Below, piece after piece: positions 42,109 through 63,947 of a stretch of 64,000 nt of DNA. A program made the position numbers and the translations under genes. The stretch covers positions 64,275-128,274 of the forward strand of contig CAZPUS010000003.1 of the NCBI GenBank assembly GCA_964589825.1, written 5' to 3'. This stretch comes from an uncultured Fibrobacterota bacterium. Lineage in GTDB: Bacteria > Fibrobacterota > Chitinivibrionia > Chitinivibrionales > WJKA01. The notes beneath the pieces were generated by a model. The model was given only the letters and a program-made list of their open reading frames with translations. It was not told the origin of the DNA and searched no databases. Each line of letters begins with the position of its first letter. Within the stretch, counting starts at the first letter, position 1.

Positions 42109-42884
42109 TTATGGCCTCCCCCCTCTGTTTCCCGTTCTGGTCTCTTGTCTGATTTTTGGCCTGAGTTTTGCGCCGCAGCCATCGATATGAGAATACTTAC
42201 CCCATACAAGACAAGAAGGGGCGCGGCAAGAAACAGCTGAGATATGACATCGGGCGGCGTAATGAATGCAGCAAGTATAAAGAATATAACAAATGCATAT
42301 TTAAATTTTTTTACCAGAAAACGAGTGGAAATCACTCCCATTCTGGTAAGTACGAACGATATAACCGGCAGCTCGAATACGAGGCCGAACGCGAGTACGA
42401 TCTTGAGTAAAAAACCGATATACTCATTTGCACGAAAATAGGGCTCAAGGGATCCTGACGCATATCCCGCAAGAAATTTCATTACGTATGGCAGCATCAG
42501 ATAGCTGAATGCGGCACCCAGAAGAAAGCACATGGTCGATGCAATCGCAACCGGGGCAACGATTACTTTTTCACGCTTGTACAATCCAGGCCCGATAAAT
42601 TTCCACACCTGCCAGGATATCATCGGTACCGCAATGATGATACCTCCCGCAACCGCGATTTTAATACTGAGAAGCACCCCTTCTGCCGGTGCGGTAAAAA
42701 TGATCCTGGGTCTGGGTTCCGATATCCTGAGGGGATAGATCATCAGCAGATCGAAGATTTTTCGCCACCATATCCCGCATGGAATCGCACCAGCGATTAC
42801 CGCGGCTATCGACGCGATCATGCGCCACCGTAATTCTTCCAGATGCTGTAAAAACGGCATTTCCCTGTCGGCGTCTTCTGCCAT
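42105..42884 (-). CDS. tatC: Twin-arginine translocase subunit TatC
   Basis: 259 aa. MPFLQHLEELRWRMI with a 6-TM pattern. Confidence 0.92.
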   Translation of the reverse strand: MAEDADREMPFLQHLEELRWRMIASIAAVIAGAIPCGIWWRKIFDLLMIYPLRISEPRPRIIFTAPAEGVLLSIKIAVAGGIIIAVPMISWQVWKFIGPGLYKREKVIVAPVAIASTMCFLLGAAFSYLMLPYVMKFLAGYASGSLEPYFRANEYIGFLLKIVLAFGLVFELPVISFVLTRMGVISTRFLVKKFKYAFVIFFILAAFITPPDVISQLFLAAPLLVLYGVSILISMAAAQNSGQKSDKRPERETEGGGHK

Positions 42885-49828: not shown

Positions 49829-49911
49829 GCCGAAGTGGTGGAATTGGTAGACGCGGCGGACTCAAAATCCGCTGGATTTTTTCCGTGCCGGTTCGAGTCC
49901 GGCCTTCGGCA
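49829..49911 (+). tRNA. tRNA-Leu (anticodon CAA), long variable arm, no encoded CCA
   Basis: Cloverleaf by hand. Acceptor GCCGAAG/CTTCGGC, anticodon stem GCGGA/TCCGC with loop CTCAAAA, variable arm tggattttttccgt, T arm GCCGG-TTCGAGT-CCGGC and discriminator A. Confidence 0.93.
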
Positions 49912-49912
49912 A

Positions 49913-49991
49913 TATAGTCGGAAACCTGTACGGCATTGTCCTGTACGGCATTGTATAGGGTGCACCTGTACTGCTGCGCGGTATAGTCGGA
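49913..49991 (+). repeat. Direct repeats immediately 3' of tRNA-Leu
   Basis: TATAGTCGGA occurs at 49913-49922 and 49982-49991. Between them is a tandem duplication of cctgtacggcattgt (49925-49939 and 49940-49954) plus a partial third copy, cctgtac (49965-49971). Confidence 0.7.
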
Positions 49992-50351
49992 GAGAGACTG
50001 CATTACCCGATCAGCCAATGCAGTGGCCTGCACGGAACGCTATTTGCTTGTACGCGGTACGATAGAATAGTAAATGGTTAAGCTTTTCCGTGTAATATGC
50101 CGATAATAACTAATGTGCCGTTTTTTCAGTATATATACCTGTACGCCGCAATAAACCTGCCTCTGCCGGGAATTCCGGTATGCATGGAGAGGGCATACAC
50201 AGGCGCGTTTTGTGATAAAACCGTTCCAATTCATTTAAAAGCGTATACGCATATATACTTCAACCGAGTTATTTATCAGCTACAAATCAACAAGTCACTG
50301 CAGACATCTTTTATACTGCATTTGTATTCAACAGGAAAGATACTCACGGCT

Positions 50352-50984
50352 ATGCCCATACAGAATTTAATCGCGTACGCGTTTATCTGTCTGCTTACGG
50401 TAACTTCGGCCGCATCGGCACAGCAGGAAACCTATAAACTGCAGCCGGGTGATGTTATATCGATAAACGTAGTGGAACATCCCGAATACTCCGCGCGGCA
50501 TAAAATTCGGCCGGATGGTAATATCAATTATCCGGTATTGGGAGAAATCAAGGTTTCTTCACTAAGCTGCGCAGAACTCGCAAAAATGATGGAAGAAAAA
50601 CTCACTTCTTATATCAACAACCCCATGGTATCGGTAGCGGTCGAAAAATACTACGCAAATAAAATCTATATTATCGGGAATGTGCGTAATCCGGGACGCT
50701 TCGAAATATATGAACCGGTCACCATTCTGAATGCACTCGCGATGTGCGGCGGTTTGACAAAAAAGAATGCCAGTCTGGTCAAGATTATAAAAAAAAGCGG
50801 AGAAATGAAAGATGTAAACCTGAAAACGTCATTTACTGCACAAAATTCGGACCTCCCCATGCTCTACCCGGGAGATACGCTCTACGTTCCCTCTCCATTC
50901 AGCGTACCGTGGGGACTCATTGCAACAATTGTCAGCATTATCAGCTCGTCGATCATGATCGTAGTTAATGTGAACAGACTGTAA
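50352..50984 (+). CDS. wza: Polysaccharide export protein (Wza-like: Poly_export + SLBB)
   Basis: Start trimmed to MPIQNLIAYAFICLLTVTSAASA (signal peptide). YKLQPGDVISINV, IRPDGNINYPVLGEIKV, IIGNVRNPGRFE and LYPGDTLYVP. Confidence 0.85.
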   Translation: MPIQNLIAYAFICLLTVTSAASAQQETYKLQPGDVISINVVEHPEYSARHKIRPDGNINYPVLGEIKVSSLSCAELAKMMEEKLTSYINNPMVSVAVEKYYANKIYIIGNVRNPGRFEIYEPVTILNALAMCGGLTKKNASLVKIIKKSGEMKDVNLKTSFTAQNSDLPMLYPGDTLYVPSPFSVPWGLIATIVSIISSSIMIVVNVNRL

Positions 50985-51014
50985 CGAAGCGTGCGAGCGT
51001 AAGGTATTTTTCGC

Positions 51015-51950
51015 ATGAGCGTACCTGTCATTCTATGCATCGGCAGTGGGAAGGGCGGGGTCGGAAAAACCACGACCATTGCACATCTTGGATATACGCT
51101 TACACGCCGGGGTTTTTCAGTGGGGTTTATCGACGCCGACGTCGGTGGCGCCAACCTCCATCTTTTCCTCGGTAGCGATAACTTACAGAAAGGTCTCGGC
51201 ACACTGCTGACGGAGAAGGATACCCCATTGTCGGATGTAATGAACCCGCTTTCCTTTTCGAACGATTCCTGGTTCGTCCCTGCAGGCGCACACAGTGGCG
51301 ATTTCGCGAACATCGGATTCAGTCAAAAGCAAAAACTTATTCGCCGGTTCAGAGAATCTCAGGCAGACTATGTGTTCATCGACCTTGGGGCTGGATCACA
51401 TTCTCATGTAACCGATTTTTTTGCGTCATTTCCGCACAACATCCTTCTTATCGACGGCTCTCCACCTTCGGTGGAAAATGCTTATATTTTTCTTAAAAAC
51501 AGTGTCGTGCGCGGGCTATTGAGATTTTTCCCGGGAAGACAGGACATCAAAAAATTTATTGCCGAATCACTCTCTACCGGCGGGGTCCGGTCGGTGACAA
51601 GCATCGAAGAGATGATCGTGACATTACAGCACAGTTTTTCGGTCGATACGGACGCACTCAAATCATGGCTCTATTCCCGTCGGATCTATCTGGTAATCAA
51701 TATGCTTACCAACAGCATTGATGAACAACGGGCAAACAAATTGACCAATATAGTACGCAAGTACCTTGCACTCAACTGTGTATATATTGGGTATGTTGCC
51801 TATTCCTCTTTTTTCAAAAATGCGTGGAACCGAGGCGGAAGCCGACACAGCGCTCCCTCATTCCTGGCAGAAAAACCTGAGAAGGTTTCCCATTGTTTTG
51901 ACACAATAGCCCACAATCTTATCACCCTTACCAGAGGCACCAGTCAGTGA
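51015..51950 (+). CDS. MinD/ParA-family P-loop ATPase
   Basis: 311 aa. Deviant Walker A GSGKGGVGKTTT, then IDADVGGANLHLFLG and FIDLGAG. Confidence 0.8.
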   Translation: MSVPVILCIGSGKGGVGKTTTIAHLGYTLTRRGFSVGFIDADVGGANLHLFLGSDNLQKGLGTLLTEKDTPLSDVMNPLSFSNDSWFVPAGAHSGDFANIGFSQKQKLIRRFRESQADYVFIDLGAGSHSHVTDFFASFPHNILLIDGSPPSVENAYIFLKNSVVRGLLRFFPGRQDIKKFIAESLSTGGVRSVTSIEEMIVTLQHSFSVDTDALKSWLYSRRIYLVINMLTNSIDEQRANKLTNIVRKYLALNCVYIGYVAYSSFFKNAWNRGGSRHSAPSFLAEKPEKVSHCFDTIAHNLITLTRGTSQ

Positions 51951-52801
51951 GTTATTTAACCTATTGGAATCTGAAAGAAAAGCCGTTTGAAGAAGTGTGC
52001 AACAGCCATTTCTTTTTTGAAAGTGATGATCACCGGGAAGCCTTCGATCGTATGCACTACGTAATAAACGACCGCAATATGAACATATGCCTGCTTACAG
52101 GGGAAATCGGATCCGGAAAAACGATCACAAAAAACATACTTCGCAGTACGCTTTCACCCCAGCATTTTCAGATCATTGATTTTGACAATTCCAATTTTTC
52201 CTTCGAGGACATTGTATACGATATTATCTCGCGATTCAGGTTCAGAGACCCTGCCATAGAAATGCAGCTTGACGAGAGCGTAAGTTCGCCCGGCCGGGGT
52301 GATAAGTATATGCTGATGAAATCATTTACCGCCAAGCTCGAAAAACTCGTGTATACCGAAAAACGGCACCTCGTACTTATATTCGATGAAGCACAGCAAA
52401 TGTCTGAAGAGGTGATTGAAGAGATAAAAAATTTGACCAATATTTCATCTGAAACACAAAACTACATCACCGTGTTTTTCATAGGACAACCGGAGCTTCG
52501 CACAAAGATATCACGGCTAAAGCAAGTGGACCAGCGCATTTTTCTGCGTTTTCACCTTAACAACCTCGGGTATGAAAACACCCGCAAATACATTCAGCAT
52601 CGGTTGCGGGTTGCAGGCTGCGAACACGAAGCGATATTCACCGCCGATGCTTTTTCGCACATCTTTCACAATACTGCCGGAGTGCCACGCGAAATTAACA
52701 GAGTATGCAAGCTTGCACTTACCTACGGGTATGCGCATGGGCTCTCTGAAATAACAAAAGAAGATATTCAGGTAGTAATTAACGATATCACCGCTACATA
52801 A
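51947..52801 (+). CDS. ExeA/GspA/MshM-like AAA ATPase (PEP-CTERM-locus ATPase type)
   Basis: 284 aa. GTG start overlaps the upstream stop (GTGA). Walker A GEIGSGKTIT, LIFDEAQ and FIGQPELR. Confidence 0.8.
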   Translation: MSYLTYWNLKEKPFEEVCNSHFFFESDDHREAFDRMHYVINDRNMNICLLTGEIGSGKTITKNILRSTLSPQHFQIIDFDNSNFSFEDIVYDIISRFRFRDPAIEMQLDESVSSPGRGDKYMLMKSFTAKLEKLVYTEKRHLVLIFDEAQQMSEEVIEEIKNLTNISSETQNYITVFFIGQPELRTKISRLKQVDQRIFLRFHLNNLGYENTRKYIQHRLRVAGCEHEAIFTADAFSHIFHNTAGVPREINRVCKLALTYGYAHGLSEITKEDIQVVINDITAT

Positions 52802-52807
52802 ATACGC

Positions 52808-55800
52808 ATGTCAGACAAAGAAAAAAAACCGTTCAGACTGGGAGACATCCTTTCAAGGCTTAAGAAAGACGGAAGCCTTGACGACGTATCGGAGGGGGCA
52901 ACGGATAACGATGAACACCGTGCCGAGACCGGCCATTCCGGCCTTTTTTCTTCACCCGGATCGATGTCCGCACTGCACAATTCACCAAAAGACGATTCTC
53001 TTCCTGCACAACCGGTATTCGGTACCCCCCGGGCACGAAATGAAGCGCAATCGGTTCCTCGACAGGAAAAAAACGAACCGCCTTCGAGCTTCGCTTCGTC
53101 AGATGACAATAATACCTCCGGAAATGAGAGAGCCTCTTCGGGTACGGTTCCCCCTTCTCCTCCTCCACCACCGGGCGGATCCGGATCGGACGGGGGCAAT
53201 TACTTCCAGGGCGGCGCATCATTTTCCGAAAACGATGATGAAGAAGAATTCGACATATACCGCTACCTGAGCGTCATTCTTCGCCGCAAGTGGCTCATTG
53301 CCGCCTGTGCGATCATCGCCGGGCTTTACAGCCTTTACAACTTCTCAACCGCAGAAAAGCACTATATTGCACGGGCGCGACTTCTTTTTACCCCCGGTTA
53401 CAGACAGCTTATCAATGACGATGCTATGATGTGGCAATTATGGGGCAGCAGAGAAATCCGTCTCAATACCCATCTGGAATTACTGAAAAGCAACAGACAG
53501 GTTCTCGAAAGTGTTTCGGATAAACTTGGCGAAAACGTCTCTCCCACAACCATAAAAGCGGGAATCACTGTCCATCGCGGCGGTGGCAAGGATGATGACA
53601 GCGAAAACAACATCATTGTTCTTACATTACAACACAACCATCCGGATACTGCGCAGCTGATACTCAATACACTGTGCAGAGAATACATGCGCTATATAAG
53701 CGAAGTGAATGCGCGCGATCTCACTTCCACAATTATTAAACTGCAAACCCAGATAAACAAGATAAAAAACGACCTCAGCGATAAAGAAAACAAGCTGCGG
53801 GCATTTAAGGAAAATAATGAACTGGTTGAGCTCAATAGTGCGACAAACACCATTATATCGAAACTCTCCAATATGGAATCGAATCTGCAAAACACGAGGA
53901 TCGATCTGAAATCGAATCGTGATAAGATTAAATCGGTAACGCAGGAAATGACACAAAACGACATGAAGGTAGTAGGAAATATAACATATGAAGATCCCTA
54001 CCGCAATCGTCTTTCCGAACTTGAATTCGATCTCAACAACCTGCTTACCGAATATAGTCCCGACCATTACAAGGTACGTATGGTCAAGGATAAAATCGAA
54101 AAAATGAAGGAGATCATTCGCTCCGATATCGAAACAAAGATCGCACGAAAAAAAACATATGTAAACAACCCTATTCAACAAACGCTTCGTCAGCAATACA
54201 TCGATCTCAATCTGGCGATTACGGCGCTGGAGTCCAAACGCAAGGCCCAGGAACAGATCGTCGAACAGCTGAATCGCAAGCTACAGTCTCTGCCTGCACT
54301 GCAGCAGGAATATGCGCGTCTTCAACGCAATACCAGCTCACTCGAAAAAACACTCCGCAAGCTTCAGGACAAATACGAAACCCTAAAGATCAAGCGGGAT
54401 TCGCAGGAATCCGATCTCAAGATTCTCGAGCTTGCAAAAGTGCCACAAACCGCATATTCCGACATGAGCGTGTCACGGATACCGCTCGGAATTATAATCG
54501 GACTGATTATCGGAATTGCACTCGCATTTGTGTGGGAATACCTCGATCAGACGATCAAGGATCCCCAGGAAGTAGAAAAGTCCACCGGGCTTCCTCTACT
54601 TGGGCTCATTCCCTATTATGAAAACGACGAATCACCGATACTTCATGGCGATCTCACAAAAGATAAGACAAAACTCGAACCCTACCGCGCGCTCAGAACC
54701 AGCCTTAAACACATTTTTTCCACACACCATATCCAGAGTCTCCTGGTCTGCAGTGCAGTAAAAGGCGAAGGGAAAACCACTATCGCGATTAATCTCGCGA
54801 TTTCGTTTGCCCTTGACGGCAGGAAGGTGATTATTGTAGACGGCGATCTGCGTCGTCCGAGTCTGCACGGTTTTTTTCATATTCCCTCTCCGTCAAAAGG
54901 TCTTACGCATTGCCTGCAGGGCAGCGCCACGATTCAGGACGTAATAACCCCTACCAACATACCCAATCTCTACTGCGTAACGGCCGGAGAACGGGTTGCC
55001 GACAGTGCCGAGTTACTCGGCTCCGCTCATCTTTCCACGTTGATATCGAGTCTTAAAGAGCATTCTCAGCTGGTGATTTTTGATTCTCCTGCGCTCGTCC
55101 CAATCAGCGATTCAATTACCATCGCCGCATCAATGGATGCGACTATTTATGTATTACGTGCGCTGTGGACCCCACGAAAAGCAACGCTGCAGTCCAGAAA
55201 TCAGCTTAGTCAGGTCGGAAGCAATATTATTGGAGCGGTGCTCAACGGACTCTCCCCTGCAAGCGGCTACTATCCGTACTACTACGGCTATTATCGCTAC
55301 TATTCTTACAAATACGCCTATGAAGAGGACGAACCCGCACCCCGTCATTCAATCCGCCGGTTCGGATTGGGCCTTGAAAAAAAAGCCAGAGAGGGACTCC
55401 ATATGCTCAAGCTTTCACTCCCCTCTTTTTTCAGCAGAATGGGAACTTTTTTTTCACACCTGGGTCGCAGCACATTATTCTGGATTCTGCTCGTGCTCTT
55501 TGTCGGCCTTGCCGTTGCCTCCGGCCTTATCTCCTCCAGACGTGCTCACAAGCAGAAAACCATCAAGGCGGCCGATATCTCCTACCGTGGTTCTGTCGCA
55601 CAATCGGCCGAATCCGTCTCTGGATCTTCCGCTCGGAGTAACACCCCTCATACACCAATAACAATTGAAAAAGAACAAACCTCATCCTACGGGGTCTCCT
55701 CCTCGGATATAGAGGCACTGCATCGGGCAGTCCAGCAAAGAGACAGTGCATTTTTTTCCGGGGATTTCTCGGAATACCGGCGTTATTACGACCGGGATGA

Positions 55801-56062
55801 ATTCTCTTTTCCGGGAGGAGGATACACCGAATGGCAGGCCAAAATGCGTCACTTTTTTAACAGCCGTCTCCCGGCCTATACAATACCGCAACCGGATTCA
55901 AACAGGATTTCACCCGCATCGTCACAGCGCTATATATCCAGAACCACTCTCGTAGTAACGGGTCCTGACAACGATACGACTCGTGCCGACTTCATCTCCC
56001 TGTGGCACACAACCCCCGCAGGATGGAAGATTATCAAGGAAAAACGCCGCTTTGATCGATAG
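52808..56062 (+). CDS. Wzc-like polysaccharide co-polymerase / BY-tyrosine kinase with an extra C-terminal TM + NTF2-like extension
   Basis: 1084 aa. Disordered N-terminus, Wzz domain, long coiled coil and a second TM. Kinase motifs are Walker A SAVKGEGKTT, A' VIIVDGDLRRP and B VIFDSPA. Tyr cluster GYYPYYYGYYRYYSYKYAY (nt 55264-55323), followed by ~260 further residues including a TM (LFWILLVLFVGLAVASGLI). Confidence 0.85.
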   Translation: MSDKEKKPFRLGDILSRLKKDGSLDDVSEGATDNDEHRAETGHSGLFSSPGSMSALHNSPKDDSLPAQPVFGTPRARNEAQSVPRQEKNEPPSSFASSDDNNTSGNERASSGTVPPSPPPPPGGSGSDGGNYFQGGASFSENDDEEEFDIYRYLSVILRRKWLIAACAIIAGLYSLYNFSTAEKHYIARARLLFTPGYRQLINDDAMMWQLWGSREIRLNTHLELLKSNRQVLESVSDKLGENVSPTTIKAGITVHRGGGKDDDSENNIIVLTLQHNHPDTAQLILNTLCREYMRYISEVNARDLTSTIIKLQTQINKIKNDLSDKENKLRAFKENNELVELNSATNTIISKLSNMESNLQNTRIDLKSNRDKIKSVTQEMTQNDMKVVGNITYEDPYRNRLSELEFDLNNLLTEYSPDHYKVRMVKDKIEKMKEIIRSDIETKIARKKTYVNNPIQQTLRQQYIDLNLAITALESKRKAQEQIVEQLNRKLQSLPALQQEYARLQRNTSSLEKTLRKLQDKYETLKIKRDSQESDLKILELAKVPQTAYSDMSVSRIPLGIIIGLIIGIALAFVWEYLDQTIKDPQEVEKSTGLPLLGLIPYYENDESPILHGDLTKDKTKLEPYRALRTSLKHIFSTHHIQSLLVCSAVKGEGKTTIAINLAISFALDGRKVIIVDGDLRRPSLHGFFHIPSPSKGLTHCLQGSATIQDVITPTNIPNLYCVTAGERVADSAELLGSAHLSTLISSLKEHSQLVIFDSPALVPISDSITIAASMDATIYVLRALWTPRKATLQSRNQLSQVGSNIIGAVLNGLSPASGYYPYYYGYYRYYSYKYAYEEDEPAPRHSIRRFGLGLEKKAREGLHMLKLSLPSFFSRMGTFFSHLGRSTLFWILLVLFVGLAVASGLISSRRAHKQKTIKAADISYRGSVAQSAESVSGSSARSNTPHTPITIEKEQTSSYGVSSSDIEALHRAVQQRDSAFFSGDFSEYRRYYDRDEFSFPGGGYTEWQAKMRHFFNSRLPAYTIPQPDSNRISPASSQRYISRTTLVVTGPDNDTTRADFISLWHTTPAGWKIIKEKRRFDR

Positions 56063-56129
56063 ATCCGATTCGTCATCCGTGCGTTTTTTCATGCGAAAAC
56101 GTGTTACAAATGATATATTTACAGTACAA

Positions 56130-56287
56130 CCCTAACTGAGCAACTGCTTTGATGAAAGCTGCCATGAACCGTGCTGTCAGTGCATCCCTAATGATGGATC
56201 ACGCGTGATGGTTGGCTCACCGTTTCGGGGGGCGCACCGTCAGTGTACATGACATAAAACTTTGCGTACAGAAGCGCTCAGTTGGGG
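56130..56287 (+). repeat. Imperfect-palindrome intergenic element (158 nt) inside the envelope locus
   Basis: Termini ccctaactgagc... and ...gctcagttgggg pair over 12 positions (one G-T). Blocks ctttgatgaaagctgcc, atgaaccgtgctgtcagtgc and tggttggctca. Left arm ctgtcagtgcatccc faces right-arm ggggggcgcaccgtcag. Confidence 0.8.
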
Positions 56288-56394
56288 TACCGTTTACTCG
56301 ATATACACACGGCTATACCTGAGCAGGTTCTGCTGTCCTGCACCCGGCCCGTTTTTCGTACAACGTTTGCTGTGTACTATTCCGCAACCTTTTT

Positions 56395-58014
56395 TTGCCG
56401 GACACGCGCTATATGAACCGATACCTGCGCATTCTGAAAATTGTGATTTTTGCCGCTCTTACTGCCGGTGTACTGTGGAAAGCGATAGAGGTGGCAAACG
56501 GATTGTACCTGCATTCGGTAACCTCCCGTACTCAGGATAATACCGCTGCCGATACGATATATCATGAAGTAAAAATAGTGGGCCATGTTGCAAATCCCGG
56601 AATTTACAAGGTTCGCCACGGAATTTCTTACTTTGAACTGCTTAATAAAGCCGGTATAACGAACTCATCCGATATAAGCGACATTATGCTGGGCAACCGC
56701 ATAGAGTCCAACAGAATAATTCGGGTTGCGGAGACAGAGACACCGGTATCCGCAGCAGTAGCTAATCAAAAGGTACGTCTGGAATTTTTCTGGGGAAGCG
56801 TGGAGCTGGTATCCAGGGACGGCCGCAGCATGCAGCCTCAGCCCGGTACCGCCATCGAAGAGGGAACACGTATTATCACCGATGCAAACGCGCAGACAGA
56901 GATCTCCCTCAACGCGTATTCGCGCGTGGATATCGATGAATTGAGCGAAATAACGGTGGAGAAAATCGGTGAAGAAAAAGAGGGAAACGTTATCACCCGG
57001 CTTTTTCAGCGATCGGGGATGGGGTGGTTCGACATCTCGTACCGCAATGAAAAAGAACGTGTGAAGATAACGACCCGCTATGCCGATATTACCGTTGCCG
57101 AACAGGGAGCGAATTTTACTATCGATGCATCCTACGATAAAATTGTGGTGCATACTATCGACGGACTGCTTCTTGTGGAACGAAAGCGCACTGATGAAGC
57201 AATCAACCTCATATCGGGCCAGCAGGTTACGGTCTATTCGGATGACCGGCCCTTTCAGGTGCGCAGTTCCGCTGTGCAAAAGACACCGGAGGAGATATTC
57301 TCCCCCCTTACACGGAAAAAGACACAGTATTTTCTTAAAAGACGACCTTTTAATTTCATGTTTATCGGGATACCGCACACCTATTATCTCATAAGCGCCG
57401 ATTTCGATAGAAGACGAGCCACTGTGGTCCATGTTGCCCCGAACACATCGGTAGATCGTTTTGCACAGGGTGTTTCGACCGTGGATCAGGCACTGCTCAA
57501 GGCAGGTCCGGCGTTTGTAAACACCCTTATTGAAGAGATAATGAATGTCAGAATCCGCAATTATATCATGCTGAATCGACTCGACATTCTTCAGATTGCG
57601 GAGACACTCGGCTCAGTGCCGGTACGAGTGGATGCCAAAGCAGCGGGTGAGCTCAATATCCGCGCCGGGCGTCAAAAACTGACCTCTCAGCAGCTTTTCA
57701 GATTTCTCGAACCGGGTGTGTCAGGATGGCAGGGCTCGTACGAACGCCAGAAGCGTGTATTGCAGGCACTTTTTAACAGCCTCTCCACGCAGGAAATTGT
57801 GCTTCGCAGTGTTATTATCCGGCAACTGCTTGCAGAGACCGAATCGAACTTCAACTGGAAAGAAGTCGTTGACAAATATTCCAAATTCAAATCGCAGACC
57901 GGATGGAATTTTAAATACGAACAACTCCCCGTATCACACACCACCCGGGATAACCGTACCTATCTCATCCCCGACCTCAAAGATGCACGGAATCTGCTCA
58001 ACCCTGAAGGATGA
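56395..58014 (+). CDS. Membrane-anchored SLBB + FecR + divergent LytR/CpsA/Psr (LCP)-like protein
   Basis: 539 aa; the start may be at 56413. TM IVIFAALTAGVLW. SLBB IVGHVANPGIYKVRHGISYFELLNKAG. FecR-like GSVELVSRDGRSMQPQPGTAIEEGTRIITDANAQTEISL. The LCP-like order of blocks is present, but SIPRD is replaced by HVAPNT. Confidence 0.6.
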   Translation: MPDTRYMNRYLRILKIVIFAALTAGVLWKAIEVANGLYLHSVTSRTQDNTAADTIYHEVKIVGHVANPGIYKVRHGISYFELLNKAGITNSSDISDIMLGNRIESNRIIRVAETETPVSAAVANQKVRLEFFWGSVELVSRDGRSMQPQPGTAIEEGTRIITDANAQTEISLNAYSRVDIDELSEITVEKIGEEKEGNVITRLFQRSGMGWFDISYRNEKERVKITTRYADITVAEQGANFTIDASYDKIVVHTIDGLLLVERKRTDEAINLISGQQVTVYSDDRPFQVRSSAVQKTPEEIFSPLTRKKTQYFLKRRPFNFMFIGIPHTYYLISADFDRRRATVVHVAPNTSVDRFAQGVSTVDQALLKAGPAFVNTLIEEIMNVRIRNYIMLNRLDILQIAETLGSVPVRVDAKAAGELNIRAGRQKLTSQQLFRFLEPGVSGWQGSYERQKRVLQALFNSLSTQEIVLRSVIIRQLLAETESNFNWKEVVDKYSKFKSQTGWNFKYEQLPVSHTTRDNRTYLIPDLKDARNLLNPEG

Positions 58015-58020
58015 TTACTC

Positions 58021-58899
58021 ATGAGATCTATCGTTTTTGGCGCACACGGCCAGCTTGGCTACGATATGGTCGCCGCACTGCGTTCGATCTACCCGGATGT
58101 ACGCGCGTTTTCTCGCCCTGAGGCGGATATTACCGACCGCCACACCGTTGAAACACTCGTGCGGACCATACGTCCCGATGCAGTAATCAACTGCGCCGCC
58201 TATACAAATGTCGACAGGTGCGAAGAACAAAGCCAGACCGCCTACCTGGTCAACAGGGATGGGCCCGCACTTCTTGCCGATGTGTGCGACGCCGCTGGAT
58301 GCCTGCTTGTACACATAAGCACCGATTACGTATTTGACGGGAAAGCCGGCGTCCCCTACACCGAAGAAGATACGCCGGAGCCGCATACCGTGTACGGTAA
58401 ATCCAAACGAGAAGGCGAGCAGGCAATACAGCACAGATGCGTCGATCATGCAATATTTCGTGTCTGCTGGCTCTACGGTCCTCATGGCACAAAAAATTTT
58501 GTCAAGGCAATAGTGAAACAGATCGTCGAAAAAGGGGAAAAAAGACTTAGCGTAGTGAATGACCAGAAGGGAACCCCCACCTGTTCGATCGATGTGAGTG
58601 AACAGATCGTGGAATGCATACGCCACGGTGCACGAGGTATTTTTCACTGCAGTGCACAGGGAGAATGTACCTGGTACGAATTCGCTCGCCATATTGTTGA
58701 TAGATGCGGGCTGGAGGCAGAGATCGTACCGTATTCCAGTGCGGAGTTTGTACAGAAAGCACCACGTCCCGGTTACAGCGTGCTCGAAAACCGCAGGCTC
58801 GCCCAGGCGGGTATTGATCGAATGCCCCACTGGAAAGACGGATTCGGACGTTATATGTCCGTAAGCGGCGGTGTACAAAGTATTCTGCGCAACCATTAA
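58021..58899 (+). CDS. rfbD: dTDP-4-dehydrorhamnose reductase
   Basis: 292 aa. VFGAHGQLG, NCAAYTNVD, STDYVFDG and YGKSK (YxxxK). Confidence 0.88.
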   Translation: MRSIVFGAHGQLGYDMVAALRSIYPDVRAFSRPEADITDRHTVETLVRTIRPDAVINCAAYTNVDRCEEQSQTAYLVNRDGPALLADVCDAAGCLLVHISTDYVFDGKAGVPYTEEDTPEPHTVYGKSKREGEQAIQHRCVDHAIFRVCWLYGPHGTKNFVKAIVKQIVEKGEKRLSVVNDQKGTPTCSIDVSEQIVECIRHGARGIFHCSAQGECTWYEFARHIVDRCGLEAEIVPYSSAEFVQKAPRPGYSVLENRRLAQAGIDRMPHWKDGFGRYMSVSGGVQSILRNH

Positions 58900-58919
58900 C
58901 GCAATTCACCGGAACACCT

Positions 58920-60020
58920 ATGCCACCGAACAGCAAACAGAACAAAACACTGATCTGTCACCTCATGAATTTGCTGGGCTTTCCCGCCCGTTACTCTCTC
59001 GCACGAAGACGTGTGCAATCCGGCAACAGGAGCGAAAATATTTCGCTTCCCCTCGATCCAAAAAATGTGAACGATTACCTGCTCGTTCTGCCGGTTTCCC
59101 CGTTCGATGCCCTCTATCAAATCGCTATAATAGAATCGATACTTCATGCATTGTCGAAAAGGCGGTGTATCACCGTATGCTGCAGCGAGGTGGCCCAGTT
59201 TATCAGGCATATAAAAGGTATCAGTGAAATCGTTGAATACGACCCGGAGCAAATGCACGAATTTTCCCCCTATTATCATGAAATTTGCAAGAAACTTTCC
59301 GGGTTCGATTTCACCGTCGCATTTATGCTTGCTCACAATCCCAGCCTTGCATTGCTGAGTCTTACCGGTCACTGCAAGGCACGTTTTCGTGCGGGGTATG
59401 AAACGTCTCATGCCGAGCCGTTTCTCAACATTCGCATTGGCAGAGATCCCGGTAAAAAACGTATTGGGGAAAACAGCCGGATTCTTGTACCATTCGGATT
59501 CAAGCTACAAAAAGAAACTACCTGGAAAATACCCAGGGATACCGTCAATGAGGTGCGCCACCTTTTTTCCCAATATAACATTCCGCGCACCACGCGTCTC
59601 ATCGCGCTCGACTGCGCCTGCTGTGTGAAACATTTCGGCAGGTCATGGACCTCACAACTCATTTCGCATTTGTCGGGGACCTATGCCCAACGACTGTTTC
59701 TTGTTATTATGGACCGTGAGTTTTACGATTCGAATACCGACTGGCTGCACTCATTTCGTGTACCGATTATGGCTGACACCTCGGTCTCACGGATAGCAGC
59801 GGCGCTTTACCTCTCCGGCGTACTGATTTCAGGCAAATCGTCAATTTTTGAAATTGCCCATCTTCTGCATAAAAAAGCGATCGGTATATTCCACGAAAAA
59901 GAGCGTGACATATTTATCGATAATGCGTTTTATCAGAAGGCACTCACCTTTACCCGTGGAGATGAATGCATCGATTCTCTCAGGGAAGAGATAGAAAAAT
60001 TTGCATTCAGAACACGATAA
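58920..60020 (+). CDS. Glycosyltransferase family 9 (heptosyltransferase)-like protein
   Basis: 366 aa. GT9-like layout: YLLVLPVSPFDALYQIAIIESILHAL, FDFTVAFML...ARFRAGYE and a C-terminal VSRIAAALYLSGVLISGKSSIFEIAHLLHKKAIGIF. Judged by eye only. Confidence 0.5.
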   Translation: MPPNSKQNKTLICHLMNLLGFPARYSLARRRVQSGNRSENISLPLDPKNVNDYLLVLPVSPFDALYQIAIIESILHALSKRRCITVCCSEVAQFIRHIKGISEIVEYDPEQMHEFSPYYHEICKKLSGFDFTVAFMLAHNPSLALLSLTGHCKARFRAGYETSHAEPFLNIRIGRDPGKKRIGENSRILVPFGFKLQKETTWKIPRDTVNEVRHLFSQYNIPRTTRLIALDCACCVKHFGRSWTSQLISHLSGTYAQRLFLVIMDREFYDSNTDWLHSFRVPIMADTSVSRIAAALYLSGVLISGKSSIFEIAHLLHKKAIGIFHEKERDIFIDNAFYQKALTFTRGDECIDSLREEIEKFAFRTR

Positions 60021-60075
60021 TGCTATCATTTATATGTATTTTACCGAGAGACGACATTCACCACATCCGTGACAT

Positions 60076-61341
60076 ATGAAACAATTACTGATATACCTTT
60101 ACAAAACCATACAATTTCGACTGATTACCTGGAAAAACAAGGTTGAAATAAAAAAAGCCTATACCGGTAACCGTCGTCGTTTCGCGTATATCCGGCCCAT
60201 TTGCATGCTCGCCGCAGCATTGCTTGCCGGGATAGGCCTGGTGACCCTTGTCTCGATATTCGTCATTGCTCCGCTGGCATCGGCACTTACAAGCACTACA
60301 GAAAAAAGCCCCACTGCCGATTCCGCAAAAAACGGAAGTGCTTCGCGTTCATCGCAACGCGGTATCATTCACGACAAAGCGGTATCAAGAGTACTCTCTG
60401 AAAAAGTAACCGATTCGATCAAAGGAATTTACTCCGACAGGGGCCGAAGGGGTAATGCTCGCGCGGGGAATCTGACCTATGCGCCCCGGCGGGCAATCTA
60501 TGTGAACAAACGCCTCGGCAAATTGTTCTTACTGCGCTATACCGGCAGCGGATGGGAGACACAAATAACCTGGCCTGCGGCCACCGGAAGATCTCGGGGC
60601 GATAAAGTCAGAGAAGGAGACCAGAAAACACCCGAAGGAACCTATTTTATAATCGGCCGTCGCGAGGACCGCGAACTCTCTGCGATTTACGGACCCGCTG
60701 CCTTTATCCTGAATTATCCCAACAGAGAAGATATTATCAGGGCTAAAACCGGAAACGGTATCTGGATCCACGGAACCGCTCCCGACTCGAGCCCTGTAAA
60801 TACCCGCGGTTGTATAGAGCTTGACAACAACGATCTACGCCAGCTCGCCGACACGCTGGGACTCGGAATCGGTACCCCGGTCATTATAAGAGAAGGCGAG
60901 ACCAGCGGCTCTTCTCTTTCCATACCGTCATACGACATTCTCAGCATTAAACGCGGTTACAGAATTTCTATTTATAAAACTACACAGCGCTATTTTGAGA
61001 ACAAGCTTGCTATGTGGACCGATGCGTGGGAAGCCCAGAATATCGATCTCTACAGTCAGTTCTACGACACCTCCGATTTCCGCGGCGGCGGGCTTGACTG
61101 GAAACGCTGGCGGGACAAAAAAATACGTACGTTTCAAATCTATTCTCACATAACCGTCGATCTTTCGCACATAAGAGTCACTGAATTCTCGAATGATCGT
61201 GTCGTATTGAAATTCATTCAGGACTATTCGTCCGAGTCCTTCAATGCGTATGGCGGAAAAAAAATGGTTTTTCGCAAAAAAAACGATACCTGGAAGATAT
61301 TCAGAGAGAATGTCTTTCCCCGAGAGGAGTTGGTATTATGA
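60076..61341 (+). CDS. L,D-transpeptidase (YkuD) with C-terminal NTF2-like domain
   Basis: 421 aa with an N-terminal TM. Catalytic region GDQKTPEGTYFI...GIWIHGT...NTRGCIELDNNDL (His/Cys). The C-terminal domain resembles the C-terminus of the Wzc-like protein. Confidence 0.85.
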   Translation: MKQLLIYLYKTIQFRLITWKNKVEIKKAYTGNRRRFAYIRPICMLAAALLAGIGLVTLVSIFVIAPLASALTSTTEKSPTADSAKNGSASRSSQRGIIHDKAVSRVLSEKVTDSIKGIYSDRGRRGNARAGNLTYAPRRAIYVNKRLGKLFLLRYTGSGWETQITWPAATGRSRGDKVREGDQKTPEGTYFIIGRREDRELSAIYGPAAFILNYPNREDIIRAKTGNGIWIHGTAPDSSPVNTRGCIELDNNDLRQLADTLGLGIGTPVIIREGETSGSSLSIPSYDILSIKRGYRISIYKTTQRYFENKLAMWTDAWEAQNIDLYSQFYDTSDFRGGGLDWKRWRDKKIRTFQIYSHITVDLSHIRVTEFSNDRVVLKFIQDYSSESFNAYGGKKMVFRKKNDTWKIFRENVFPREELVL

Positions 61342-63947
61342 ATTTCCCTTTCCTGAAAAAAAACGAATATCAGGATCCTGAAAAGCTGGCAGAAGTGCTG
61401 CAGGACAATGTCGAAAATCTTCAAAAAATAATCGACAACGCTGGTTCCGAAAAGGCCGAAATACATTCCCTGCTCGCATCGATGGAAAAGGAACGAAGTC
61501 AGATACGTACCGAACGTCAGTATGCTCAGCAGATACATACCCAGCTTCAGGAATTCGAGAAAAAGTACGAGCAGGTCGACTCGAAAATCGAATACGTACA
61601 GGCGCAGCAGGAAAACCTTGACAAAAGCATTAAAAGCATATCCACGCTCGAGGATAAGATACACAAGTACGAGTCCGTAATCAACAAAATTCTCGACAAT
61701 GAGAATTACCTCGAAAATCTCGACAAAAACGTCGACAACATCATTCAGAAGCTTGACGGCAAGGCGGATGTAGATGTCGTAAAACAGACTTCGCAATCTC
61801 TGAACGAACTGATGCAGCGTCAGGACAAGCATACCGAAGCGCTCTCTTCAATGGAGCAGAAAACCGAAAAACTTTCCAAAGAGATCGGGGCTGTTGAAGA
61901 GAATTTTGCACAGGTCGGCCAACGCTCGGAATCGCTCAACAGCAATATCGATGAGCTGGAAGAACGCATGAATTCGCTCATGCTGACCAGGGAAAAAGTC
62001 GAAAATCTCAACGATCTTTCGGAATATGTAAAGTCGAAAGTCAAGGAACTCGACTATCAGCGTGTAGTGGTGGAAAAGGCGACTGAAGAAGCCGGACGCT
62101 TGAACACCATTACCTGGCGTGTGGACAACGAATTAAAGCATGTCAAACAGAACCTCTCCACACTACAGCGCACCGAAAAAAATATCGAGCAGATAAACGA
62201 AATGCTGGAAAGAAGTCAGAGCTCGATAAATGAAATCCGTCAGTTCCAGAAAATGATGGAGAATGCAACGCATAAAATCACGGAAATAAAACAACTCGAT
62301 TCATATCTTGACGAAAAGCTAGAGAGTTTCAACCAGAAAACCGAGCATGTAAACAAGGTGTACGAACGTGCCCACGAAGTCCATACCATCGCCAAAAACA
62401 CCGAGGCGACGGTCAACACGGTAACCAAACATAAACAGATGGTCGAAGAGACGAGGAATAAAATCATCGAATACGAAAAACACGTCGATAAAATCAATTC
62501 CCGCATAGATGAGATGGACAAGCAGTGGAACACCCTCGACTCAATAAGACAGCAGGTCGAATCACTGCAGGAACAGGCCAATGAGGTGGAACAGAACCAG
62601 GAGAATTTGCAGAATACACAGAACCAAATACAATCTCACCAGAACAAACTCGAAGATCTTCGCTCGCTTATAGACGACACCTGCCAGAAGGAAGAGTATA
62701 TGCTTGAGTACAAATCACAGATCGAGCAGATGGATAAACGCATACAGGACTCCATGAAGCAGGGCGAAGAACTCAACACACGAATACAGGAGCTGAGTAA
62801 CTACGACCAGTATATATCAGGTGTCTCCGATCAGATCGAAGAGCTGCAGTCACTTTCAAATAAGGTCAGTGATAAAATCAACGATGTCAACGACCGTGCG
62901 CGCATTATCCAGGAGGTCGACAACAAAATCGCGAATCTCGGGGATATGGTGGAGGATATCGACGAACGCATCGACGGCCAGCTCAAACGGAAATCGCAAA
63001 TTGACAACGCGGAAAAACGCCTCGACCAGCTCAACTATCTTATCGGCGACATCAACATGAAGATACAGAACCTCTCACGGGACCAGAAAAACGTGGATGA
63101 GGTGAAAAGCAAACTCTCCACCATTTCGGTGCAATCCAACGAAGCGGAAGAGACTATCGAACGACTCTCGAGTGAAAAACGAAAACTCACGGAGACCGAA
63201 AACTACATTCAATCGCTGCAGCACCAATGCGAAGAACTCGTACGCAAAGCGAATAAGGGAATCGACCACTTCGATGAAAAACTCAATGAGTCCGAACAGA
63301 GAATGAATGAGAAAGATGCGCGTTTTCAGCAGCTTCTCCAACAAAATCAGAACGACCTCGATACAATAAACGAATACCGTACCCATATCAATCAGGCGGT
63401 CGATCAGCTGTCTGAAGTACAGAAGGCGTATGAAAACCTCAAAAACGAAATGAATCAGATCAACAGACGATACACCAAAATCGAAGCGATCGACTCACGA
63501 ATTGAAAATATCAACACCGCTATTTCGGATATCGAAATTCGCATTGAGGCGGTCGACAAGCAACGTGATATAATCGATAAGGCGCAAAAGAAAATTGACA
63601 CGCTAATCGATACAAGCCAGAAAACGGATGACAAGATCGATGAAATAAAATCACAGCACACCAAAATCGAAGAAATAGGCAACGAGACCAAAAACATCGA
63701 AAAACTGATGGGTTCACTTGAGCAACGGGCGTCCAAGCTTACGCAGCAGGAAAAACACATAAGCGAAGGAGAACAGAGAATAAAGAATCTCAATCTCCTC
63801 ATGAGTGATATAAAATCACAGATAACCAACCTTACCAAGGAGAGTGAGCGTATACAGCAGGCAACCGAGAAATCCTCCGAGTTGAAATACCTGCTTGGTG
63901 AAGTTGAACAGAAGCTTAAATTACTGCGCAATGAAAGTAACACCTGA
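61338..63947 (+). CDS. 869-aa coiled-coil-rich protein (no enzymatic motif)
   Basis: Almost entirely E/K/Q/N/L/I heptad-like sequence. No Walker or SMC head motifs. 4-nt ATGA overlap with the L,D-transpeptidase gene. Confidence 0.75.
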   Translation: MNFPFLKKNEYQDPEKLAEVLQDNVENLQKIIDNAGSEKAEIHSLLASMEKERSQIRTERQYAQQIHTQLQEFEKKYEQVDSKIEYVQAQQENLDKSIKSISTLEDKIHKYESVINKILDNENYLENLDKNVDNIIQKLDGKADVDVVKQTSQSLNELMQRQDKHTEALSSMEQKTEKLSKEIGAVEENFAQVGQRSESLNSNIDELEERMNSLMLTREKVENLNDLSEYVKSKVKELDYQRVVVEKATEEAGRLNTITWRVDNELKHVKQNLSTLQRTEKNIEQINEMLERSQSSINEIRQFQKMMENATHKITEIKQLDSYLDEKLESFNQKTEHVNKVYERAHEVHTIAKNTEATVNTVTKHKQMVEETRNKIIEYEKHVDKINSRIDEMDKQWNTLDSIRQQVESLQEQANEVEQNQENLQNTQNQIQSHQNKLEDLRSLIDDTCQKEEYMLEYKSQIEQMDKRIQDSMKQGEELNTRIQELSNYDQYISGVSDQIEELQSLSNKVSDKINDVNDRARIIQEVDNKIANLGDMVEDIDERIDGQLKRKSQIDNAEKRLDQLNYLIGDINMKIQNLSRDQKNVDEVKSKLSTISVQSNEAEETIERLSSEKRKLTETENYIQSLQHQCEELVRKANKGIDHFDEKLNESEQRMNEKDARFQQLLQQNQNDLDTINEYRTHINQAVDQLSEVQKAYENLKNEMNQINRRYTKIEAIDSRIENINTAISDIEIRIEAVDKQRDIIDKAQKKIDTLIDTSQKTDDKIDEIKSQHTKIEEIGNETKNIEKLMGSLEQRASKLTQQEKHISEGEQRIKNLNLLMSDIKSQITNLTKESERIQQATEKSSELKYLLGEVEQKLKLLRNESNT

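Follow-up and report, generated by a model that had tools for sequence, protein, structure and literature searches.

Do nine co-oriented genes that combine polysaccharide export, peptidoglycan trimming and a giant coiled coil belong to a single envelope-assembly system? This question is raised by a locus at positions 49829 to 63947 of a 64,000-nucleotide stretch of DNA (the window) from an uncultured Fibrobacterota bacterium (contig CAZPUS010000003.1 of assembly GCA_964589825.1). The original prediction, which was made from the sequence, described the nine genes, here called p1 to p9, as one possible module. Domain analysis and comparison with related genomes suggest a different answer: it is probable that the locus consists of two separately conserved Fibrobacterota envelope modules, a Wza/Wzc-type exporter of a rhamnose-containing polysaccharide (module A, p1-p6) and a cell-curvature module (module B, p7-p9). 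The features of the locus are as follows.

49829-49911, + strand: tRNA-Leu(CAA) (ARAGORN and Rfam)
50352-50984, + strand (longest open reading frame (ORF) from 50097): p1, a Wza-like mini outer membrane polysaccharide export (OPX) protein, 210 aa (Pfam, PDB match)
51015-51950, + strand: p2, MinD/FlhG/ParA-type P-loop ATPase, 311 aa, cytoplasmic (Pfam, structure matches)
51947-52801, + strand: p3, ExeA/GspA/MshM-like AAA+ ATPase, 284 aa, cytoplasmic (AAA_22)
52808-56062, + strand: p4, extended Wzc, a class 2a polysaccharide co-polymerase (PCP-2a) fused to a BY-kinase (bacterial tyrosine kinase), 1084 aa (TIGR01007, Wzz, GNVR)
56413-58014, + strand (ORF from 56395): p5, SLBB-FecR-LCP-fold protein (LCP, LytR-CpsA-Psr), 533 aa (Pfam, model fold)
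58021-58899, + strand: p6, RmlD, dTDP-4-dehydrorhamnose reductase (TIGR01214)
58920-60020, + strand: p7, protein like glycosyltransferase family 9 (GT9; GT-B fold), 366 aa, cytoplasmic (profile-profile comparison)
60076-61341, + strand: p8, Csd6/Pgp2/Bd1075-family L,D-carboxypeptidase, 421 aa (YkuD, Cds6_C, PDB matches)
61338-63947, + strand: p9, all-coiled-coil cytoplasmic protein, 869 aa (coiled-coil-type matches only)

Conservation of the locus in Fibrobacterota

Synteny was analysed in around 20 Fibrobacterota genomes and around 15 metagenome contigs, whose loci are designated by L numbers. An initial database search with p5 returned eight relatives only, on whose contigs the order OPX, MinD-like, AAA_22, giant Wzc, LCP-like and RmlD was already visible. 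Scanning the p5 family alignment against one genome per GTDB species yielded 23 loci, all of which belong to Fibrobacterota metagenome-assembled genomes (MAGs; Chitinivibrionales, Chitinispirillaceae, 'Fibrobacter sp.' and Fibrobacteria), and p1 to p9 were compared with these loci by tblastn. Wherever a locus has enough sequence (~18 genomes), p1-p2-p3-p4-p5-p6 keep their order and strand. Identity to the window proteins ranges from 34-41% for p2, 34-44% for p4 and 34-42% for p5 to 56-66% for p3, the most conserved gene of the module. A counterpart of p2 occupies the equivalent position in almost all related loci that have sequence at this point, with no match in L013, and p6 follows p5 in all loci and is the last gene of module A in the window. 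After p6, nearly all relatives have a gene for an RmlB-like 4,6-dehydratase, which the whole window lacks. What flanks module A varies by lineage (a riboflavin operon in some lineages, RNase H in others), and no homologues of the window's upstream genes (47562-49436 and others) were found in the related loci.

Module B was sampled by a metagenome scan with the p8 family alignment, followed by tblastn. A p9 homologue is located directly downstream of every full-length p8 homologue where the contig reaches that far, and a p7 homologue is present upstream of p8 in most loci (L033-L036, L040-L042, L045), while none was detected there by tblastn in L087. The order p7-p9 is identical in ~15 loci. 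The constant neighbours of these three genes are a GGDEF gene, which precedes p7 on the opposite strand in many loci, and relA/spoT, which directly follows p9 in 10 loci.

Only in about a third of cases do modules A and B lie next to each other. Among the p5-family loci, p7-p9 lie 1-4 kb downstream of p6 only in L005/L012, L009, L010 and L026, and an opposite-strand GGDEF gene and/or an RmlB-like gene is inserted between the modules in L005 and L009; in L044 and L047, p4-p6 or p6 are located just upstream of module B, as in the window. Conversely, module A lacks p7-p9 within 10 kb downstream in at least 13 genomes, and no p1-p6 genes are present within 10 kb upstream of p7-p9 in L033, L034, L036 and L045. 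The proposal of a single nine-gene module was thus not borne out. Chance juxtaposition of the genes had been named as the alternative; the identical order of p1-p6 and of p7-p9 in relatives is more than chance, but the nine genes do not form one set.

It had also been suggested that the locus continues past the right edge of the window. The probable end of the locus is p9, since this gene is followed by relA/spoT in 10 related loci, and the next gene predicted by synteny is relA/spoT and not wzx, wzy or a glycosyltransferase gene. The reported lack of exosortase, Wzx/Wzy and glycosyltransferase genes was confirmed among the window ORFs scanned (those up to ~30.7 kb and from ~36.6 kb onwards), and none of them was found within ±10 kb of the locus in L002, L031 and L032. 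In L006 and L007, a GT2 gene and epimerase genes are encoded ~5 kb downstream of module A. Unannotated downstream genes of 400 aa in the same two loci were considered as candidates for Wzx or Wzy, which is ruled out by their non-polytopic profile, as no multi-transmembrane pattern is visible.

The description of the locus as tRNA-Leu-adjacent is correct for this genome; however, the adjacency is not conserved, since a tRNA gene precedes the p1 homologue in none of 18 related loci. The tRNA gene is therefore an incidental neighbour, which marks the left boundary in this genome only and lies outside the system. A tRNA-linked genomic island is ruled out by the uniform GC content across the window (0.44-0.53), the lack of an integrase among the scanned upstream ORFs and the lack of the tRNA in the 18 relatives.

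The nine + strand ORFs are located 3' of the tRNA gene and separated by short gaps. Their common orientation and two four-nucleotide overlaps, both part of the original prediction, are confirmed by ORF coordinates and sequence context: the GTG start of p3 overlaps the stop codon of p2 (GTGA at 51947), and the ATG of p9 overlaps the stop codon of p8 (ATGA at 61338). The domain calls (Poly_export and SLBB, MinD/ParA, AAA_22, Wzz with GNVR and BY-kinase, SLBB with FecR and LCP, RmlD, YkuD, coiled coil) were reproduced with Pfam and NCBIfam. The start codon of p1 is most likely M86 (nt 50352), since the resulting 210-aa protein with its signal peptide matches homologues of 209-244 aa. For p5, the ATG at 56413 is the most likely start, as it agrees with the 533-aa database protein P0001. 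A promoter and terminator scan of 49.4-64 kb produced matches no more frequent than in shuffled sequence and is uninformative on operon structure. p4 and p5 are separated by a 350-bp non-coding gap (56063-56412), which yielded neither a convincing promoter nor a convincing terminator; their homologues in relatives either overlap or have less than ~100 bp between them.

Module A: components of a probable exporter and associated proteins

p1 contains the two domains expected of an OPX protein, a Poly_export (PES) domain (PF02563, 79.7 bits; D1) and one SLBB domain (SLBB_2, PF22461, 40.4 bits; D2), which are preceded by an SPase-I-type signal peptide and followed by a C-terminal hydrophobic/amphipathic helix. 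It shares Poly_export and SLBB with Wza of the E. coli Wza-Wzc systems (group 1 capsule, colanic acid); however, it consists of D1-D2 and the helix only and lacks D3, the Tyr-ring loop and a lipobox. Wza and WzaB structures in the PDB match p1 with E-values of 5e-25 to 5e-17, the top match being 9N9A, the Class-3 OPX protein WzaB of M. xanthus (E 5e-25). The alignment with 9N9A covers p1 residues 19-183, is ungapped through the short beta1-beta2 region and stops just before the C-terminal helix. This helix, PW..(S/T)(I/V)L.I(I/V)S.SL.I, is conserved in 18 of 18 homologues, and no consistent lipobox was found among them. By definition, Class-3 OPX proteins lack an outer membrane-spanning helix and use N-terminal lipidation and a beta-barrel porin (PMC12819527). 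The body of p1 thus resembles the short D1-D2 periplasmic architecture of the M. xanthus proteins (WzaB/WzcB/WzpB; PMC12819527), but whereas these are lipoproteins that depend on a Wzp beta-barrel, p1 carries a C-terminal helix, lacks a consistent lipobox and is not accompanied by a linked porin in the window. These features identify p1 as an OPX protein with a Class-3-like D1-D2 body and a conserved C-terminal helix.

Two sets of genes that are upstream of module A in relatives were also observed. A protein of 270-326 aa with one transmembrane segment and no Pfam match (L002 3369-4181, L032 7157-8137, homologues in at least 11 loci) is encoded in many relatives directly upstream of the p1 homologue, with which it shares the strand. 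The window does not contain it, and module A may have in it an additional component or a regulator that varies between lineages. In one sub-lineage (L006, 862-2088 and 2119-2964 on the - strand; also L007 and L031), the products of a divergent gene pair are a protein of 408 aa, whose N-terminus resembles FadL/TodX (Pfam E 0.04 only), and a putative lipoprotein of 281 aa; the former could be an outer-membrane beta-barrel partner of the OPX protein.

p4 matches TIGR01007 with 150.9 bits, above the cutoff of 108, as well as Wzz and GNVR, and the PDB structure of Wzc, 7NHR, with an E-value of 4.5e-37. The protein begins with a disordered N-terminus (~1-145) and the transmembrane segment TM1 (~160-180), which was read from the sequence and is below the hydropathy threshold that gave the other segments. 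These are followed by a periplasmic Wzz/GNVR coiled-coil region, TM2 (552-581), the kinase domain (~620-830), the tyrosine cluster YYPYYYGYYRYYSYKYAY (~821-838), a third transmembrane segment (881-911) and a C-terminal NTF2-like domain of ~110 residues (~969-1080, nt 55712-56047). The Walker A, A' and B motifs and the tyrosine cluster are conserved in 21 sequences, and YYPYYYGYY is invariant. With two transmembrane segments flanking the periplasmic Wzz/GNVR region, Walker motifs and a C-terminal tyrosine cluster, p4 is identified from its motifs as a full PCP-2a/BY-kinase with intact ATP-binding motifs. Two transmembrane segments, a coiled-coil region, GNVR, a fused BY-kinase and a tyrosine cluster are likewise found in E. 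coli Wzc, to which p4 adds the 145-aa disordered N-terminus, the third transmembrane segment and the periplasmic NTF2-like domain.

In a comparison of family alignments with hhalign, the C-terminal domain of p4 matches the NTF2 domain of p8 with a probability of 97% (E 1e-10); BLASTP between the two C-termini returns only a 23-residue match (E 0.08). The Pfam family Cds6_C, whose name is presumably a misspelling of Csd6, is a precomputed match on the p4 homologue of L032 and matches six of ten C-termini of p4 homologues, two of them above the gathering score. On the basis of these profiles, p4 and p8 carry homologous NTF2-like domains. Since the third transmembrane segment of p4 follows the cytoplasmic kinase domain, its NTF2-like domain is predicted to be periplasmic. 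No report combining NTF2 with Wzc or a BY-kinase was found in the literature searched.

Two cytoplasmic ATPases are encoded between p1 and p4. p2 matches CbiA, ParA and AAA_31 in Pfam, its closest solved structures are FleN/FlhG and MinD (E 5e-11), and its deviant Walker A (KGGVGKT), DxD and DLGAG motifs are conserved in 19 sequences. p3 contains an AAA_22 domain (63.5 bits) of the type found in ExeA/GspA and MshM, with conserved Walker A and Walker B motifs. More than 2,600 database homologues of p3 were found, the best 120 of which are all ~283 aa long and at least 60% identical; the named ones belong to Chitinivibrionales, Chitinispirillaceae and 'Fibrobacter sp.' MAGs, with the exception of one Planctomycetota-labelled MAG contig. 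ExeA has a cytoplasmic AAA+ domain, a transmembrane segment and a periplasmic peptidoglycan-binding domain in one protein and assembles the secretin. Although JGI annotates p3 homologues as 'general secretion pathway protein A', p3 does not have the full ExeA/GspA architecture, as neither a membrane helix or hydrophobic segment nor a peptidoglycan-binding domain was found in it. FlhG, MinD, TadZ and BcsQ drive the assembly and placement of other envelope machines. In contrast to the ExeA, MshM, FlhG and MinD systems, p2 and p3 are not linked to a secretin, pilus or flagellar gene here.

p5 is an inner-membrane-anchored periplasmic protein, which consists of an N-terminal transmembrane segment, an SLBB domain (Pfam, 28 bits), a FecR-like beta-sandwich (27.1 bits) and an LCP-fold domain (LytR_cpsA_psr, PF03816, 34.1 bits with a gathering score of 24.6). 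An AF2 model was built from a seven-sequence alignment (pLDDT 70). Foldseek matched its LCP part to TagT, TagV, TagU and Cps2A with E-values of ~1e-11 (1e-11 to 1e-8 when LcpA is included; target TM ~0.6), the FecR-like sandwich to the anti-sigma protein 4M0N and PupR, and the SLBB domain to ComEA. For the catalytic motifs, a profile alignment to TagV, TagU and Cps2A and a 22-sequence family alignment were used. In the aligned region, RxD, SIPRD and RxR are absent from all 22 family members, in which only 'RQ' is kept; the corresponding positions are occupied by PDS/PHT, HLPAE/HVAPN and RFL.P, none of which is conserved across the 22 sequences, and the score for NCBIfam TIGR00350 (34.5) is below the cutoff of 62.3. 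The earlier label 'LCP-like' therefore holds for the fold but not for the catalytic Arg/Asp motifs, and p5 is best described as a putative pseudo-LCP protein. Because these motifs are missing, ligation of a polymer to peptidoglycan by p5 is unlikely. p5 shares the LCP fold and a Pfam match above the gathering score with TagT, TagU, TagV and Cps2A, but differs from LCP phosphotransferases in its motif loss, its fusion to SLBB and FecR-like domains, its diderm host and its position inside a Wza/Wzc cluster. An exhaustive profile search among 1.84 billion representatives yielded ~45-50 full-length clusters (50% identity), beyond which the matches are SLBB repeats or ordinary LCP proteins only. 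Given this number of clusters, the p5 architecture appears to be a small, lineage-restricted family, and no report combining LCP with FecR or SLBB was found in the literature searched.

The last protein of the module, p6, matches TIGR01214 with 303 bits (cutoff 224) and is identified by this match as RmlD. The polymer handled by module A is probably a rhamnose-containing surface polysaccharide. In comparison with E. coli Wza-Wzc loci, module A has no linked wzb, wzx, wzy or glycosyltransferase gene, and it possesses a MinD-like ATPase, an ExeA-like ATPase and a pseudo-LCP protein in addition.

Module B: a putative curvature module

p8 had been described as a peptidoglycan L,D-transpeptidase. 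This assignment has to be revised, as p8 contains a YkuD domain (PF03734, 65.5 bits) with a His/Gly/Cys triad, followed by an NTF2-like domain (Cds6_C, PF24125, 63.6 bits), which places it in the Csd6/Pgp2/Bd1075 family of L,D-carboxypeptidases. Bd1075 of Bdellovibrio (7O21) matches p8 over both domains with an E-value of 1e-36, Csd6 of H. pylori (4XZZ) with 2e-21 and Pgp2 of C. jejuni (6XJ6) with 8e-18. The triad residues H232, G233 and C246 are invariant in five sequences. p8 thus has the catalytic triad and the two-domain architecture of curvature-generating L,D-carboxypeptidases. Vibrioid curvature is produced by the L,D-carboxypeptidase Bd1075, which is directed to the convex face of the cell by its NTF2 domain (PMC8938487); for Pgp2, the NTF2 domain is reported to bind peptidoglycan (PMC8038945). 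Unlike the secreted Bd1075, Csd6 and Pgp2, p8 is a bitopic membrane protein with an N-terminal tail (~1-35), a transmembrane segment (~36-74) and a long, variable linker in front of the YkuD domain. Within the cytoplasmic N-terminal segment, K10, T18, W19, E24, A28 and Y29 are invariant in five sequences. The genetic context of p8, between a GT9-like gene and a gene for a ~870-aa coiled-coil protein and near relA/spoT, also differs from that of the three known enzymes. No description of a Csd6/Pgp2/Bd1075-type system in Fibrobacterota was found in the literature searched.

p9 has coiled-coil-type matches only and no hydrophobic segment, and, as for p6, no identical database entry was found for it. 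In ~15 loci its homologues mostly overlap the p8 stop codon, and they are 36-43% identical over the full length. p9 and its relatives match the SpiroCoCo models NF047515/NF047514 with 118-174 bits (cutoff 125), in multiple stretches and at shifting positions, alongside SMC, Rad50 and ASRP matches; this similarity looks like coiled-coil composition rather than proven homology. A search of the literature for 'SpiroCoCo' returned nothing.

No Pfam or NCBIfam match was obtained for p7, the gathering score of PF01075 was not reached, and a homology search returned only p7 itself. The label 'GT9-like', which had been given to p7 before, is nevertheless supported by profile-profile comparison: an alignment of the p7 family (14 sequences) matches E. 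coli WaaF/WaaC/WaaQ/WaaU in hhalign with a probability of 95.4% (E 2e-8, 267 columns), whereas GT4, GT30 and GT8 controls reach 0.1%. The similarity covers both Rossmann-like halves. The N-terminal aspartate position is kept, but the 'DSG' donor-binding aspartate is aligned to K/R, and p7 may be a non-canonical or inactive glycosyltransferase. A weak match to the GT9-like NDH subunit PnsB1 was also found, and one of five p7 relatives matches PF01075 at E 0.009; a structure model from the single sequence was unusable (pLDDT 32).

A distant version of module B was observed in L048 (8087-12093), where a p8-like protein (461 aa) and a p9-like protein (871 aa, 29% identity over the full length) are encoded between GGDEF and relA/spoT genes, with a 183-aa ORF in place of p7. 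The association of L,D-carboxypeptidase, coiled coil and relA may thus not be confined to the window's lineage. A further gene with a possible link between positioning and the cell wall is present elsewhere in the window (18770-20608, - strand). It encodes a 612-aa fusion of an N-terminal ParA/MinD-type ATPase (KGGVGKS), a hydrophobic helix (~335-361) and a C-terminal M23 (LytM-type) peptidase, which would wire a cytoplasmic positioning ATPase across the membrane to a wall hydrolase. The M23 peptidases Csd1, Csd2 and Csd3 shape Helicobacter.

Proposed mechanism

We propose that the glycosyltransferases, flippase and polymerase required by module A are encoded elsewhere in the genome, and that p4, by analogy with Wzc, oligomerises and cycles through autophosphorylation, thereby coupling polymerisation and export. 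The C-terminal helix of p1 would serve as an outer-membrane anchor or pore and replace the lipid anchor or beta-barrel partner of Class-3 OPX proteins. The third transmembrane segment of p4 would place the NTF2-like domain in the periplasm, where it would dock the machine on peptidoglycan or read out the peptidoglycan; this is suggested because a domain of this type is responsible for peptidoglycan binding in Pgp2 and for the targeting of Bd1075. p5 may be a non-catalytic periplasmic adaptor, whose SLBB domain, FecR-like sandwich and LCP-fold shell, the latter binding carrier lipid or glycan, would bridge p4 and p1. p3 and p2 are proposed to drive the assembly and placement of the machine, comparable to the role of ExeA/GspA for secretins. 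The functions of ExeA would then be split in module A, with p3 as the AAA+ part and the p4 tail as the membrane-spanning and wall-binding part.

In module B, p8 would trim peptidoglycan tetrapeptides to tripeptides, as expected from its characterised relatives, and p9, perhaps together with p7, might position p8 from the cytoplasm. Such positioning is conceivable because p8 is membrane-anchored and has a conserved cytoplasmic tail. The location of module A beside module B in this genome may have arisen through lineage-specific rearrangement, and functional cross-talk between the modules via the shared NTF2-like domain is possible.

Alternative explanations

According to one alternative, all nine genes form one integrated envelope-assembly system, which would, for example, deposit polysaccharide on one cell face while curving the wall. 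The co-orientation of the genes with short gaps, the adjacency of the modules in several loci, the homologous NTF2-like domains on p4 and p8 and the site-determining type of the ATPase p2 are in line with this idea; however, it appears unlikely given that A is found without B in at least 13 genomes and B without A in four loci, that other genes separate the modules in L005 and L009, and that the constant partner of B is relA/spoT. It is also unlikely that A and B are two arms of one spatial programme, in which the NTF2-like domains of p4 and p8 recognise the same local peptidoglycan feature and p2, p3 and p9, the latter via the p8 tail, direct export and trimming to one cell face. If true, this programme would combine cytoskeleton-guided asymmetric wall editing with face-specific secretion of an adhesive polymer, e.g., for attachment to chitin. 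The original prediction had also pointed out a likeness of the locus to PEP-CTERM loci, and module A could be a divergent XrtA/PEP-CTERM exopolysaccharide locus with exosortase and substrates encoded elsewhere in the genome. As in these loci, a soluble ExeA-like AAA+ ATPase is found in module A together with an OPX protein and a tyrosine kinase with its chain-length determinant, and the corresponding models are the best or near-best NCBIfam matches of p1 (TIGR03027), p3 (TIGR03015) and p4 (TIGR03007 and TIGR03018). The NCBIfam check thus confirmed that the models match, but all four scores are far below the curated cutoffs (TIGR03027, 98.4 vs. 180; TIGR03015, 179 vs. 324.5; TIGR03007, 146.6 vs. 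278.85; TIGR03018, 129.8 vs. 230.65). Moreover, the scanned window ORFs and the 10 kb on either side of the locus in L002, L031 and L032 contain neither an exosortase nor a PEP-CTERM substrate, p4 unites in one protein the chain-length and kinase parts, for which the XrtA models assume separate proteins, and the MinD-like, pseudo-LCP and NTF2 parts are outside the matched XrtA-system models. The 2006 PEP-CTERM paper contains no mention of the ATPase or kinase models. We regard this explanation as very unlikely.

Two further explanations concern the product of module A. p5 could be an active LCP ligase that moves the polymer from its polyprenyl-pyrophosphate carrier onto peptidoglycan, which would result in a wall-anchored glycopolymer in a diderm bacterium. 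The Pfam score above the gathering threshold, the LCP fold confirmed by Foldseek and the peptidoglycan-related NTF2 domain on the neighbouring p4 would fit such an activity, but the loss of RxD, SIPRD and RxR in 22 of 22 sequences and the sub-cutoff TIGR00350 score make it highly improbable. Module A could also be a Wza/Wzc-derived scaffold for another envelope process, such as the secretion of protein, fibres or vesicles or the formation of a cyst envelope. This would explain both the two extra assembly ATPases, as secretin and pilus systems typically have ATPases like ExeA/MshM and MinD/FlhG/TadZ, and the lack of linked glycosyltransferase, Wzx and Wzy genes, and it is consistent with an LCP domain that is inactive as judged by its motif loss. 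The strict linkage of RmlD and the usual presence of the RmlB-like gene, the intact BY-kinase motifs and tyrosine cluster and the conserved Poly_export domain of the OPX protein point in the opposite direction, and the chances of a non-glycan scaffold are considered slim.

Several observations also weigh against the reading preferred here, i.e., two separately conserved modules for rhamnose-containing polysaccharide export and cell curvature. Adjacency of A and B in at least seven loci (the window, L005, L009, L010, L026, L044, L047) exceeds a one-off event and may reflect more than rearrangement. Module A lacks linked genes for a glycosyltransferase, Wzx, Wzy, an initiating phosphoglycosyl transferase and Wzb, both among the window ORFs scanned and in the 10 kb to either side in L002, L031 and L032; as glycan-assembly genes are not linked, substrate and pathway type are deduced from the Wza/Wzc parts and the Rml genes alone. 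The NTF2-like domain of p4 in the window is below the Pfam thresholds and matches only DUF4440 of the NTF2 clan (20 bits, E 1e-3), and peptidoglycan binding by p4 is an extrapolation from Pgp2. Confidence in the p5 model is medium, given its pLDDT of 70 and its seven-sequence alignment, and p5 may catalyse another chemistry despite the loss of its motifs. An interaction between p8 and p9 is hypothetical. Cultured Chitinivibrio and Chitinispirillum are vibrio- or spirillum-shaped, and Fibrobacter is a rod (PMC4814513). Support for the putative role of module B in curvature is indirect and comes only from the vibrioid and spirilloid shape of these class relatives.

Other observations in the window

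Three further ORFs with unusual domain combinations are located outside the nine-gene locus. A 598-aa ORF (37070-38866, + strand) contains LytB/IspH (residues 3-277) and a UbiA-type prenyltransferase domain (374-545), an apparent and unusual fusion of prenyl transfer with the synthesis of isoprenoid precursors. Directly downstream of tatC (42105-42884), a 283-aa ORF (41257-42108, - strand) has a weak TatA/B/E-like N-terminus (5-35, E 6e-4) followed by a 5-formyltetrahydrofolate cyclo-ligase domain, which may be either a genuine fusion or the result of a mis-joined start. The third ORF (27724-30537, - strand) encodes a Ser/Thr protein kinase of 937 aa with a 3-keto-disaccharide-hydrolase-like domain (383-543) and TPR repeats.

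Significance

The original prediction that the gene set may be uncharacterised is in agreement with the literature searched, in which no description of it was found. The two modules can be regarded as an elaboration of the Wza/Wzc exporter that is specific to this phylum and as a version of the curvature L,D-carboxypeptidase system that is tethered to the membrane and coupled to a coiled coil. Fibrobacterota are polymer degraders whose envelope biology is almost undescribed, and module A is a strictly ordered and strongly conserved envelope machine across environmental members of this phylum. It departs from the Wza/Wzc paradigm in four ways, namely the OPX protein, in which a membrane helix is added to a Class-3-like body, the NTF2-bearing Wzc, the catalytically stripped LCP-fold protein and the two assembly ATPases, and these departures lead to hypotheses on how exporters may be assembled and anchored to peptidoglycan. 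Module B would extend the Csd6/Pgp2/Bd1075 curvature enzymes to another phylum, in a form that is membrane-tethered and translationally coupled to a giant coiled coil. It thereby bears on a question left by the Bd1075 study (PMC8938487), namely what directs these enzymes to a single side of the cell.

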